64,000 bases of DNA from the NCBI RefSeq assembly GCF_003334255.1, contig NZ_QOWU01000024.1; one strand, written 5' to 3'. The DNA comes from Escherichia coli. Lineage in GTDB: Bacteria; Pseudomonadota; Gammaproteobacteria; Enterobacterales; Enterobacteriaceae. The notes beneath the pieces were generated by a model. It did not search any database and was not told the DNA's origin. It was given only the letters and a program-made list of their open reading frames with translations. Position 1 is the stretch's first letter. The number at the start of each line of letters is the position of its first letter. The position numbers and the translations under genes were made by a program. This document shows positions 1 through 48,277 of this stretch, in pieces.

Positions 1-76
1 ACGCGAGGCATCGTCTTAACGAGGCACCGAGGCGTCGCATTCTTCAGATGGTTCAACCCTTAAGTTAGCGCTTATG
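1..76. mobile_element. Right terminus of an IS186-like insertion sequence (partial; window begins inside the element). Positions 54-76 read caacccttaagttagcgcttatg, the reverse complement of the terminal inverted repeat I recall for IS186 (CATAAGCGCTAACTTAAGGGTTG).
   Basis: Recalled IS186 terminal repeat seen at 54-76; immediately flanked by GGGAGTAATCCCC (77-89), which fits the GC-rich GGG(N6)CCC-type target preference of IS186. No transposase ORF falls within the 76 bp present. Confidence 0.55.
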
Positions 77-186
77 GGAGTAATCCCCGCATATCCGGTT
101 GTCAGGTCAGGATGGTAAGGCACCTGCTTTACACTTTCGCCCGTGGTCAGTGATGGCTGCGGGCGAATCGTACCAGATGTTGTCAA

Positions 187-816
187 TTAATCGTGTTGGC
201 ACAGCGTTATGACTATCTTTTCTTTTATCTGCCAGTGCACAGCAAACATCTCATTCTCACGATGAATGATGACCTGCTGTTTATTCCAGCTAATTATCTG
301 ATAGTCCAGAAAACCTGCATCAGTTTGGATCTCACTTGCCTTAAATGCGCTCTCTTTGGCGGAAAATGCCAGTGTCAGCGCCAGAGAAAAGGCTAAACCG
401 CAGTCTGCGAGTCGCTCGTGTTCCGCTGGTGTAATAATGTTGTCTGTCAATTCTCTTGCGGTTTGTACAGAAAAAATTTCTTCTATATCAATGCCAATCG
501 GTTGACGAGATACCACGGCTAATGCCGTAGTCCCACAGTGGCTAATACTGCCGTATACCTCCGCAGGCCAGACAGGTTGGCGTAGCTCGCCGATTGCGGG
601 CACACATTTATAGCCATATTCCCGCAAAGCATAAACAGCAGCGATCCGTCCGGCTAAATGCTCTGTTTTACGTTTACGTCCAGCGTGTTGCAGTTGTGCG
701 TAGTGCGGCAGCCAGAGTAAATCCTGCTCACAAAAATTCGCCGGATCGAACTCAACAAAATGCAGCGTATGTCCGGCAAAGGGGAGGGAGGTATGCGTAG
801 TTTTCATATCGACCAT
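187..816 (-). CDS. entD: Enterobactin synthase component D, 4'-phosphopantetheinyl transferase
   Basis: Translation MVDMKTTHTSLPFAGHTLHFVEF... recognised as EntD. Track ORF extends to 957 but the first 47 codons run across REP elements; start set at ATG 816 (alternative ATG at 807). Confidence 0.9.
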   Translation of the reverse strand: MVDMKTTHTSLPFAGHTLHFVEFDPANFCEQDLLWLPHYAQLQHAGRKRKTEHLAGRIAAVYALREYGYKCVPAIGELRQPVWPAEVYGSISHCGTTALAVVSRQPIGIDIEEIFSVQTARELTDNIITPAEHERLADCGLAFSLALTLAFSAKESAFKASEIQTDAGFLDYQIISWNKQQVIIHRENEMFAVHWQIKEKIVITLCQHD

Positions 817-844
817 ATTCGAGACTGATGACAAACGCAAAACT

Positions 845-873
845 GCCTGATGCGCTACGCTTATCAGGCCTAC
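845..873. repeat. REP (repetitive extragenic palindromic) unit
   Basis: gcctgatgcgctacgcttatcaggcctac: typical E. coli REP palindrome in the fepA-entD intergenic region. Confidence 0.7.
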
Positions 874-907
874 ATGGTCCTGCAATATATTGAATTGGCA
901 AGATTTT

Positions 908-943
908 TGTAGGCCGGATAAGGCGTTCACGCCGCATCCGGCA
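908..943. repeat. REP unit, opposite orientation (BIME-like pair with 845-873)
   Basis: gtaggccggataaggcgttcacgccgcatccggcatg: canonical REP sequence; the same 36-mer core recurs at 22841-22880. Confidence 0.7.
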
Positions 944-981
944 TGAACGACGCGCACTTTGTCAACAATCTGACGTTAGCA

Positions 982-3222
982 TCAGAAGTGGGTGTTTACG
1001 CTCATATACCACGTACGTCCCGGCTCGTTATAGGTATACGCCCCGGCACCGGCGATATAGTTGGCCCCTGCCAAATCGCCCGTGGTCTGGGCATTACCCG
1101 CACGCCACAAACGTTTGTCGAACAGATTGTCCACGCCGCCGGTCAGACTGACATTCTTCGTCACATCCCAGGTCGCGCTCAGGCCAACAATGCTGTAAGG
1201 ACTAATTTCTTTGGTTTCCGGTCCAACCGCTGGCTGACCTTTATAGTTGTACTTCTTCGGCTGCTGCTTGCCGTACCAGGTGAAGGTCGTTTGCATCGAC
1301 AAATCTTCCCGTGCCTGCCAGCTCAGCGTTGAGTTCAACGTATACTCCGGGATGATCGACAAACGGTCGCCCGTGGTTTTGTTTTCACTCTTCAGCATAT
1401 AAGTGATGTTATTGGTCCACATCACCGTTTCGCTAACCGGTACGTTTAACGATCCTTCCAGACCTTCAACCACCGCTTTCGGCACGTTATCCCACTGATA
1501 GAGATCGGTGCCGACTGCGTTTTGCCCTACAGCCACATAGCCCGCTTCAATCTTATTGCGATAATCGTTACGGAACCAGGTGACGCCCGCCAGCCACCCG
1601 TCGCGTTTGAACTCCAGACCAATCTCTTTGTTGATGCTGGTTTCTGCTTTCAGGTCATCGTTACCTTGCAGATAGCAGCCGCCCGCGCTGGCATAGCAAC
1701 CCTGACCTTTACTGTAGAGAATGTAGTTCGGGTTAGTCTGGTACAGGCTCGGCGCTTTATAAGCACGGGCGATGCCCATTTTCAGCGTGAAGTCATCGCC
1801 TAAACCTTGCGATATGTTCAGCGCCGGGCTCCAGTTATTGCCGACAATACTGTGATGATCGAAACGCAGCCCCGGCGTTACGATGGTGCTGTCAGTCAGC
1901 TCCATGTTGTTTTCGGCAAACAGCGAGAAAATTTCTGCTTTTGAATACGGGCTACGGTCGGTGGTACTCACGCCATCAATAGCGCCACCGGTATTCGTTC
2001 CGGTCAGTGCCTGGGTGTTGGAACTTAAGTCCTTCATCCGTTGCTGATTCCACTCCGTACCCAGCGTCAGCGTCTGGTTAACGAGGAAATCAATCGGCAG
2101 GTTAACTTCGCTGTGCAGCATCACGTCATCAAGATCGATATCGACGAAATCCTGTGTCGCTTTTTCGTTAAATTTCCCTTCGGTACCGCCCGCCAGACCT
2201 TCCGGAATACGCGAGTTACGGGTGTGTTCGTACTGCACCCAGTTGCTGGTGGTCACGCCGTTATCCCAGCCACCGTTCCAGGTCAGCGCGTAGTTCTGGC
2301 GATACAGACGGTTGGTTTCATCGCCATATTTCGAGCGGGTATAGGAATCGGAGTTGGTATTCTGGGTGTCGCCCGCATACAGGTTACCCTGGCGGCTGTA
2401 ACCTGCTTCCAGTTCCAGCGATTGCAATGGCGCGAAATCCCAGCGCACCACGCCATTAATATCTTTGTTGATTACCCCTTCGCGCCCGGCTGGTAACGTC
2501 GTGGCATACGTTCCGGCACGCGCGGACTGATGGCCCTGGTTGATATCCCACGCGTCAGCCTGGGTTTTGTCGAGGTTGCCATACAAACGGAAGCTGAATT
2601 CGTCGCCCAGCGGACCGGTCAGGCTAAAGTTAGTGCGTTTGGTGGCACCTTCCTCTTTATGTTCTGGCGCATTGAAATATGCGTCCCAGGAGCCGTGCCA
2701 CTCGCCGCTGCCTTTTTTGGTAATGATGTTAACCACGCCGCCCGCCGCGCCGTTGCCATAACGCGCAGCTGCCGGACCACGCAGAACTTCAATACGTTCA
2801 ATCATTTCAGGTGGCACCCAGGAAGTATCACCACGGGTATCGCGCTCGCCACGCCAGCCCTGACGCACCGAGTTACGGCTGCTTACCGGCTTGCCGTCAA
2901 TCAAAATCAGCGTGTTTTCCGGACCCATACCGCGAATATCAATCTGTCGGTTATTCCCACGCTGACCACTGGTGGAGTTACCGGTCAGGTTAACGCCTGG
3001 CATGGTACGGATGATCTCCGACACATCGCGGGCAACCGGGTTTTTGCGGATTTCATCTGCGGTGATGGTCGAAACGCCAGGCGCCTGTAAGTTCTGCTCG
3101 GCGGCGGTAACGACAATAGTATCGTCATGTGAAACAGGAGTATCGGTCGGCTCTTGTGCCTGCGCTACCCCATAAATCCCCAGATTGACCAACAAGGCCA
3201 GGGAATGAATCTTCTTGTTCAT
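982..3222 (-). CDS. fepA: Ferric enterobactin TonB-dependent outer membrane receptor
   Basis: Translation from MNKKIHSLALLVNLGIYGVAQA (signal peptide) recognised as FepA, 746 aa, ending in the C-terminal aromatic residue (…NTHF) typical of beta-barrels. Track ORF extends 20 codons further upstream. Confidence 0.95.
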   Translation of the reverse strand: MNKKIHSLALLVNLGIYGVAQAQEPTDTPVSHDDTIVVTAAEQNLQAPGVSTITADEIRKNPVARDVSEIIRTMPGVNLTGNSTSGQRGNNRQIDIRGMGPENTLILIDGKPVSSRNSVRQGWRGERDTRGDTSWVPPEMIERIEVLRGPAAARYGNGAAGGVVNIITKKGSGEWHGSWDAYFNAPEHKEEGATKRTNFSLTGPLGDEFSFRLYGNLDKTQADAWDINQGHQSARAGTYATTLPAGREGVINKDINGVVRWDFAPLQSLELEAGYSRQGNLYAGDTQNTNSDSYTRSKYGDETNRLYRQNYALTWNGGWDNGVTTSNWVQYEHTRNSRIPEGLAGGTEGKFNEKATQDFVDIDLDDVMLHSEVNLPIDFLVNQTLTLGTEWNQQRMKDLSSNTQALTGTNTGGAIDGVSTTDRSPYSKAEIFSLFAENNMELTDSTIVTPGLRFDHHSIVGNNWSPALNISQGLGDDFTLKMGIARAYKAPSLYQTNPNYILYSKGQGCYASAGGCYLQGNDDLKAETSINKEIGLEFKRDGWLAGVTWFRNDYRNKIEAGYVAVGQNAVGTDLYQWDNVPKAVVEGLEGSLNVPVSETVMWTNNITYMLKSENKTTGDRLSIIPEYTLNSTLSWQAREDLSMQTTFTWYGKQQPKKYNYKGQPAVGPETKEISPYSIVGLSATWDVTKNVSLTGGVDNLFDKRLWRAGNAQTTGDLAGANYIAGAGAYTYNEPGRTWYMSVNTHF

Positions 3223-29301: not shown

Positions 29302-29672
29302 TAATTTGTCCTTTTCAGTCAGTGCAAAAGTCGAGTAAAAGGCATAACCTATCACTGTCATAGGTAAGAGCTTAGATCAGGTGATTGCCCTTTGTTTATG
29401 AGGGTGTTGTAATCCATGTCGTTGTTGCATTTGTAAGGGCAACACCTCAGCCTGCAGGCAGGCACTGAAGATACCAAAGGGTAGTTCAGATTACACGGTC
29501 ACCTGGAAAGGGGGCCATTTTACTTTTTATCGCCGCTGGCGGTGCAAAGTTCACAAAGTTGTCTTACGAAGGTTGTAAGGTAAAACTTATCGATTTGATA
29601 ATGGAAACGCATTAGCCGAATCGGCAAAAATTGGTTACCTTACATCTCATCGAAAACACGGAGGAAGTATAG

Positions 29673-34695: not shown

Positions 34696-34924
34696 TTTTA
34701 CTCCATGTCGTCGGTGCTGCGAGTGTCGCAGATAAACATACCCAAAAGAAAACCCTCACCGTCAGGCGGCGAGGGTTTAACTCACATGATGATACTGACT
34801 GTTGCTCACTCTTTGAAGTGATTTGCGTCACATTCAGGGAATTCCTCAATGCAGCGCATTATGTATAAATCTTAATCGCCTTGGTTTATGGAAGACGAAT
34901 TAGCGTGTTTTGTAAATCAGATGA

Positions 34925-47284: not shown

Positions 47285-47845
47285 ATGAACGTGAGTAAAT
47301 ATGTCGCTATCTTTTCCTTTGTTTTTATTCAGTTAATCAGCGTTGGTAAAGTTTTTGCTAACGCAGATGAGTGGATGACAACGTTTAGAGAAAATATTGC
47401 ACAAACCTGGCAACAGCCTGAACATTATGATTTATATATTCCTGCCATCACCTGGCATGCACGTTTCGCTTACGACAAAGAAAAAACCGATCGCTATAAC
47501 GAGCGACCGTGGGGTGGCGGTTTTGGCCTGTCGCGTTGGGATGAAAAAGGAAACTGGCATGGCCTGTATGCCATGGCATTTAAGGACTCGTGGAACAAAT
47601 GGGAACCGATTGCCGGATACGGATGGGAAAGTACCTGGCGACCGCTGGCGGATGAAAATTTTCATTTAGGTCTGGGATTCACCGCTGGCGTAACGGCACG
47701 CGATAACTGGAATTACATCCCTCTCCCGGTTCTACTGCCATTGGCCTCCGTGGGTTATGGCCCAGTGACTTTTCAGATGACCTACATTCCGGGTACCTAC
47801 AACAATGGCAATGTGTACTTTGCCTGGATGCGCTTTCAGTTTTGA
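47285..47845 (+). CDS. pagP: Lipid A palmitoyltransferase (outer membrane beta-barrel)
   Basis: Translation from [30 protein letters not shown] (186 aa); ends in the aromatic C-terminus RFQF. Confidence 0.93.
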
Positions 47846-48019
47846 GACAAATGAAGTTTTAGTAACTTCTTTAAAATCAATAGCTAAAATAAGTAACATC
47901 AAAAATAACGCGACTTTTATCACTTTTTAGTAAAGTTACACTGGACAAAGCGTACCACAATTGGTGTACTGGTAACCGACACAGCATTTGTGTCTATTTT
48001 TCATGTAAAGGTAATTTTG

Positions 48020-48229
48020 ATGTCTAAGATTAAAGGTAACGTTAAGTGGTTTAATGAGTCCAAAGGATTCGGTTTCATTACTCCGGAAGACGGCAGCAAA
48101 GACGTGTTCGTACACTTCTCTGCAATCCAGACTAATGGTTTTAAAACTCTTGCTGAAGGTCAGCGCGTAGAGTTCGAAATCACTAACGGTGCCAAAGGCC
48201 CTTCTGCTGCAAACGTAATCGCTCTGTAA
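48020..48229 (+). CDS. cspE: Cold shock-like protein E
   Basis: Translation [37 protein letters not shown]... (69 aa); RNP motifs KGFGFI and VFVHF. Confidence 0.97.
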
Positions 48230-48249
48230 GATACGTCAGCAAGAATTCA

Positions 48250-48277
48250 AAACCCGCTTAATCAGCGGGTTTTTTTT
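48250..48277. terminator. Bidirectional rho-independent terminator between cspE and crcB
   Basis: aaaacccgcttaatcagcgggtttttttt: stem cccgc/gcggg flanked by A-run and T-run. Confidence 0.8.

Follow-up and report, generated by a model that had tools for sequence, protein, structure and literature searches.

An IS-like end stands at the border of the enterobactin region in the 64,000-nt stretch of Escherichia coli DNA analysed here (contig NZ_QOWU01000024.1 of assembly GCF_003334255.1; in the following, the window), a short distance from the 3′ side of entD. The question is which element this end belongs to, how the element came to lie at this position, and which of the neighbouring genes is really affected by it.

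Identification of the IS186 right end

The first 90 bases of the window read ...ggttCAACCCTTAAGTTAGCGCTTATGGGAGTAATCCCCgc. The 23-nt terminal inverted repeat of IS186, CATAAGCGCTAACTTAAGGGTTG, matched the 64-kb window only once, at positions 54-76 on the minus strand with 0 mismatches, and it was matched in none of 100 shuffles of the window, even though up to 3 mismatches were permitted. When a match over at least 80% of the length was required, positions 1-76 were found in 2142 of 5426 complete E. coli genomes, nearly all with at least 99% identity (E = 3e-31). The positive genomes had a median of 3 copies of this IS186 end, which were located on chromosomes and plasmids, and a sequence that is multicopy, near-identical and present on both types of replicon has the signature of a mobile element. 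In MG1655, each of the three IS186 copies (IS186A, IS186B and the third one between nupC and pdeA) has a right end identical to positions 1-76, and positions 1-200 were identical to the right end of IS186B together with its flank. Positions 1-76 (plus strand) were annotated as the non-coding right-hand end of IS186, based on the identity to the three MG1655 copies (IS186A, B and C) and on the IS186B annotation in NC_000913.3.

The initial annotation had proposed an IS186 terminal inverted repeat at positions 54-76, to be checked by a database comparison of the element end. The repeat is indeed an exact 23-nt copy, and the hits of positions 1-76 in complete E. coli genomes were strong and 100% identical to IS186 right ends. 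A chance resemblance to the IS186 repeat can be dismissed, since thousands of IS186 ends share all 76 bases at the above E value and no shuffle gave a match.

The whole window was collinear with MG1655 (NC_000913.3, 609273-673272), with 12 SNPs and 0 indels. The SNPs were located at window positions 3018, 4317, 26614, 26894, 29258, 32145, 38317, 39724, 46600, 48856, 48868 and 60138, which means that none of them lies within positions 1-200. At the corresponding site, NC_000913.3 carries the feature "insertion sequence:IS186B" (608007-609351) with insL2 (b0582), between hokE (b4415) and entD (b0583), and the RefSeq annotations there read "insertion sequence:IS186B" and "IS186/IS421 transposase". 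The site, orientation, duplication and neighbours (hokE and entD) of IS186B are the same as those in the window, but the window holds just 76 bp of the element. With 12 SNPs in 64 kb, the source is a very close relative or derivative of K-12, and not demonstrably MG1655 itself. The element was correctly identified in the initial annotation and was already known: it is IS186B of the K-12 lineage, at a catalogued site.

Structure of the complete element

IS186 is a member of the IS4 family of approximately 1.34 kb, with perfect 23-bp terminal inverted repeats and the DDE transposase InsL. In the source window only 76 bp of the element are visible, and everything further left (transposase, left repeat, left duplication copy) was read from genomes sharing the junction. 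In one of these (L001), two perfect 23-nt inverted repeats bound the element, which measures 1339 bp from outer base to outer base. The right terminal inverted repeat (window 54-76, minus strand, CATAAGCGCTAACTTAAGGGTTG) is exact and is perfectly complementary to the left repeat in L001; left and right repeats were identical in L001 and in five other IS186 copies. The L001 element was flanked by the 12-nt direct repeat GGGAGTAATCCC, with a start-to-start spacing of 1349. The length of the target duplication can be read as 10-12 bp, because the target's G and C runs pass without a break into the G and C at the tips of the element, which makes the boundary ambiguous by one base on each side (76-87). 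The unambiguous core is GGAGTAATCC, which lies at window positions 77-86 (no strand assigned) and was annotated as the right copy of the target-site duplication from the L001 direct repeat and the junction sequences.

The insL gene reads toward the right end, and in genomes with the same junction its stop is 96 bp left of window position 1 (insL ends at L001 2905, and window position 1 is L001 3001), so positions 1-76 are a non-coding element end. The InsL protein (370 aa) from a junction-sharing genome scored 133.3 bits against NCBIfam NF033592 (IS4 family transposase), for which the curated cut-off is 115. The transposase, left inverted repeat and target-site duplication that were expected upstream of the window are all present in the genomes sharing the junction.

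We infer that the IS186 copy in the source genome is complete. The alternative is that it is a defective or truncated copy, either a solo end or an element with a frameshifted transposase, and thus a fossil rather than a mobile element. The window ends 76 bp into the element, with its completeness out of view, and imperfect copies do exist. G1/2, G6/7 and G8 were perfect matches to both 25-kb stretches searched, and the G1/2 copy (L006 2737-4076) has 1340 bp versus 1339 bp, with a transposase annotated as frameshifted; in strain 602354, the second hokE copy has only the left end of IS186, cut by IS100. Given the G1/2 frameshift, the IS186 copy upstream of the window could be defective. However, the element was full-length in every inspected genome with the right junction (L001, L004, L006 and L009), and the MG1655 region, only 12 SNPs from the window in 64 kb, has an intact insL2. 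The 1340-bp copy in G1/2 is either a dead copy or the result of a homopolymer sequencing error in its extra single base, and we consider a defective copy in the source genome unlikely. G1/2 itself was rejected as the source strain, since some 2 kb of the window are missing from it and it carries an IS1 in the ybdL-dsbG interval.

Target site of the insertion

A GGG(N6)CCCC-type target had been described directly after the terminal repeat. The sequence in question is GGGAGTAATCCCC at window positions 76-88, and it is indeed of the IS186 type, being the right half of a split target; the only slip, a trivial one, is that G76 was counted twice, as this base is common to GGGAGTAATCCCC and the terminal repeat. 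The right half of the split G4N6C4 target was annotated at positions 77-90 (plus strand), and it corresponds to the 3′ arm of the GC-rich hairpin in the hokE 3′ UTR.

In EC195 (L002), a genome without the element, the position reads gtgcGGGGAGCAATCCCCgcat, and tgcGGGGAGCAATCCCCgca in L002 spans the empty target. The site without the element, GGGGAGCAATCCCC, is GGGG-AGCAAT-CCCC, that is G4N6C4, which fits the published IS186 target 5′-GGGG(N6/N7)CCCC (PMC6925257, citing Chong 1985, SaiSree 2001 and Lee 2016). All three IS186 copies of K-12 occupy G4N6C4 sites, namely GGGGAGTAATCCCC next to hokE, GGGGATCACTCCCC next to hokC and, between nupC and pdeA, GGGGATAATTCCCC, a hairpin flanked by A and T runs; the pattern of target duplication was the same at the other two sites as at hokE. 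The 64-kb window has no intact G4N6C4 left (chance expectation, 0.7), and the only G4N6C4 site of the region was the one now occupied.

A close counterpart is IS186A at hokC (gef; NC_000913.3 15387-16731), the same element with an identical right end. Its target, too, was a G4N6C4 hairpin (GGGGATCACTCCCC), some 20 nt downstream of a hok stop codon. IS186A differs from the window copy in the hok paralogue, the chromosomal site and the target spacer. In the third K-12 copy, between nupC and pdeA (L007 1225-1260 and 2554-2600), the split hairpin has an A run on one side and a T run on the other (aaaaaagCCGGGGATAATTCCCCGGttttttt) and looks like a bidirectional intrinsic terminator, so IS186 appears to target GC-rich RNA hairpins in general. 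Insertions of IS186 at lon follow the same GGGG(N6/N7)CCCC rule and are recurrent, in both orientations and at one exact position (PMC3045373, PMC3861542, PMC6925257). At hokE, too, both orientations of IS186 were found. But at lon a promoter is disrupted, the insertion is unstable and the phenotype is strong (mucoidy and Lon deficiency), whereas the hokE insertion is downstream of the coding region and is stably carried by whole lineages.

Predicted consequences for the hokE mRNA

The insertion site is 21 nt past the hokE stop codon, and its target sequence forms a GC-rich hairpin that this type I toxin mRNA has in its 3′ UTR. The MG1655 annotation places hokE and sokE immediately to the left of the element, in sequence that the window does not include. 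The Rfam sok model (RF01794) matched the L002 locus with 84.4 bits (gathering score 59), and from this match and the annotated sokE and hokE we regard the locus as hok/sok.

The uninterrupted hokE mRNA was folded from L002:2689-3092, with a 5′ end assumed on the basis of where the Rfam sok match starts and of a −10-like TAAGAT. With this inferred 5′ end, the minimum-energy and centroid folds both gave a predicted structure of classical hok architecture, with a z-score of −7.04. The predicted tac/fbi closing helix has 10 bp, in which GCGGGUGCCU on the 5′ side pairs with AGGCACCUGC near the 3′ end (window 118-127). The G4N6C4 sequence is predicted to form, just after the hokE stop, a hairpin with 10 bp in the stem and 4 nt in the loop. 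In the window, positions 118-127 (plus strand) would represent the orphaned fold-back inhibitory (fbi) element of the hokE mRNA, AGGCACCTGC, as judged by its predicted pairing with GCGGGUGCCU. Positions 136-167 (plus strand) would represent the orphaned 3′-terminal hairpin, with a 14-bp stem and a GUGA loop, which was predicted in the uninterrupted mRNA as well as in the window fragment. Compared with hok/sok of plasmid R1, the uninterrupted hokE mRNA is predicted to be alike in the 5′-3′ closing helix, the GC hairpin after the stop, the terminal hairpin and the sok region. Unlike in R1 hok/sok, the window has just the severed 3′ tail of the mRNA, and hokE is chromosomal and, according to the literature, inactive in K-12.

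The proposed course of events is as follows. IS186 transposed, presumably by the cut-and-paste mechanism known from the literature, into its preferred GGGG-N6-CCCC target with duplication of 10-12 bp (GGAGTAATCC), and this target is the GC-rich stem-loop that starts a few bases past the hokE stop in the 3′ UTR. The insertion would split the hokE transcript in such a way that the promoter, tac, the mok/hok ORFs and sokE remain left of the element, outside the window, while the fbi element and the terminal hairpin would be stranded on its right (window 118-167). Stability and later activation of hok mRNAs are reported to depend on the pairing of tac with fbi and on processing at the 3′ end (PMC9841398), so the split hokE locus is regarded as inactivated. 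The hokA, hokC and hokE genes of K-12 have been described as inactivated by insertion elements (PMC12214031, PMC7232551, citing Pedersen and Gerdes 1999), and we infer from this literature that carriers of the insertion have lost hokE function. The gene really affected is hokE, which lies just outside the window and was overlooked in the initial annotation. Taking all of this together, we are nearly certain that positions 1-76 are the right end of an IS186 copy at the IS186B site, inserted by transposition in a target in the hokE 3′ UTR, by which the hokE mRNA is split and entD is not disrupted.

Distribution of the insertion in E. coli

A query of 50 nt of the IS and 50 nt of the flank was used for the right junction, and the exact junction was present in 1730 of the 5426 complete genomes, K-12, BL21, HS and J53 included. 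Another 386 genomes had IS186 in the opposite orientation at the same site. The insertion had been called strain-specific, which does not agree with an identical junction in so many genomes. The matching left junction (hokE-IS186) was found in 1873 genomes. This is 143 genomes more than for the right junction, and the excess indicates that some genomes have a second hokE copy, other IS elements or deletions right of the element. The unoccupied site configuration was found in 3647 genomes. The insertion at hokE was present in about 32-39% of complete genomes, a percentage that is approximate because 1730 + 386 + 3647 is more than 5426 and the totals of occupied and unoccupied sites overlap. The overlap likely comes from tandem hokE duplication, by which one genome holds an occupied and an unoccupied site; the search can also join non-collinear pieces, as in strain 602354. 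Provided that no genome falls in both orientation classes, IS186 would occupy the hokE hairpin in up to 2116 of the 2144 complete genomes that are IS186-positive. In this sample, which includes laboratory strains, the hokE copy could be the ancestral or the most stable copy, or the site could be the hottest target.

The hokE hairpin site is used by IS186 more than once. In some strains hokE/sokE is tandemly duplicated with a period of about 503 bp (L005 1338-2020; L004 1-2060), with a GGGGAGCAATCCCC hairpin in each copy, and tandem duplication of hokE has also been reported in strain NRG857c (PMC7232551). In strain 602354 both tandem hokE copies were hit by IS186 at the equivalent hairpin, and the second was later truncated by IS100. 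In strain 8600 (L003 1670-3035), IS186 was found in the opposite orientation at the identical position, which corresponds to window 54-88. The two copies of the L003 duplication differ by one base, with GGAGTAATCC on the left and GGAGCAATCC on the right, and the T and C alleles both occur at unoccupied sites; the difference points to a later mutation or to recombination with the other allele. An inversion in place, including the flanks, via the 38-nt extended inverted repeat was also considered for the opposite orientation and was rejected, as the predicted flank GGATTACTCC was not seen in L003. The opposite-orientation copies would have arisen either by crossover inside the repeats or by independent insertion.

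Pedersen and Gerdes are said to have linked IS elements to hok loci already in 1999. In a population survey of mobile elements, hok/sok genes were found near several E. coli insertion hotspots (bioRxiv 10.1101/527788). A more far-reaching reading would be that IS186 has a preferential, lineage-wide relationship with hok, in which the hairpin of the hok 3′ UTR serves as a "safe harbour" through which the species retains IS186, with selection favouring silencing of the toxin. This reading starts from the coincidence of the G4N6C4 target with the conserved GC hairpin of the hok 3′ UTR, from the high share of IS186-positive genomes with a copy at hokE (up to 2116 of 2144), from the presence of both orientations, and from the hits in both tandem hokE copies. 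We put it forward as a speculation, and a rather doubtful one. If it is true, the new part would be the near-universality and the safe-harbour reading, as the link between IS elements and hok is already published.

Effect of the insertion on entD

The entD gene (187-807, minus strand; from the annotation of identical sequence in L001, L006 and L010) is intact and convergent with hokE and insL. The IS end is on the 3′ side of entD, as stated in the initial annotation, at a distance of 110 bp from the stop codon of the gene. Outward-facing sequences of IS186 had further been supposed to affect neighbouring genes. A consensus scan of window positions 1-1000 gave no promoter-like and no terminator-like site, and a literature search for an outward promoter of IS186 found no report; with entD convergent and complete, this supposition is not supported.

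A related explanation is that the insertion matters mainly for the expression of entD and enterobactin, by read-out from the right end of IS186 antisense to entD. It is true that insL is transcribed toward entD, that the genes converge, and that the scan of positions 1-1000 gave no terminator-like site. But the scan also gave no promoter-like site in the IS end or its flank, and no outward promoter of IS186 is on record in the literature searched. In addition, the element lies past the 3′ end of entD and leaves its coding sequence unchanged. K-12 has working enterobactin synthesis, and about a third of complete genomes carry the insertion, such enterobactin-proficient strains included. An antisense read-through effect on entD is possible and finds no support here, and a main role of the insertion in enterobactin expression is very unlikely.

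The longest ORF in the entD frame extends over 187-957 (minus strand, GTG start, 256 aa), while the annotated entD (187-807, 206 aa) uses a shorter start. Rfam matches above the gathering score in the window were the ES036 (CssrF) sRNA model at 866-907 (minus strand) in the entD-fepA intergenic region, STnc70 at 29435-29528 (plus strand) upstream of ahpC, the rnk leader at 34741-34849 (minus strand), and the cspA thermoregulator model at 47835-48277 (plus strand) over cspE and its leader.

Collinearity of the flanks

In the inspected genomes with the right junction, the flanks were ybdK-hokE on the left and entD-fepA on the right, collinear with genomes without the element, and the target duplication was intact. 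The IS end had been taken to mark a rearrangement point; as read from these flanks, the insertion between hokE and entD is a simple insertion. It would be a breakpoint if recombination between IS186 copies, or an adjacent deletion, had brought sequence other than hokE to the left flank of entD. Events of this type are known, since IS186 copies can recombine, with plasmid integration via IS186 as an example (PMC6925257), and a "hokE_large" deletion removing the fep/ent operons arose in evolved lines of E. coli B (PMC4557228); the excess of 143 genomes with the left junction (1873 versus 1730) could also be taken in this sense. However, the left flank was hokE-ybdK in all inspected genomes with the right junction, with the duplication intact, and the window is collinear with MG1655 over the full 64 kb, which makes a breakpoint at this position highly improbable. 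The general point that IS186 is potentially a source of instability was reasonable, and no instability is visible here.

Meaning of the insertion

The simple insertion in the hokE 3′ UTR corrects the emphasis for this locus: the hokE toxin locus is affected, not entD, and the element and its site are already catalogued. Added here are the link to the hairpin in the hokE 3′ UTR and the population counts. Positions 77-167 of the window, rather than being intergenic sequence without explanation, are predicted to be the cut-off tail of the hokE transcript, and the enterobactin cluster right of the element is in its normal context. The population counts are a modest illustration of how a sequence-specific IS repeatedly hits one site that encodes an RNA hairpin.
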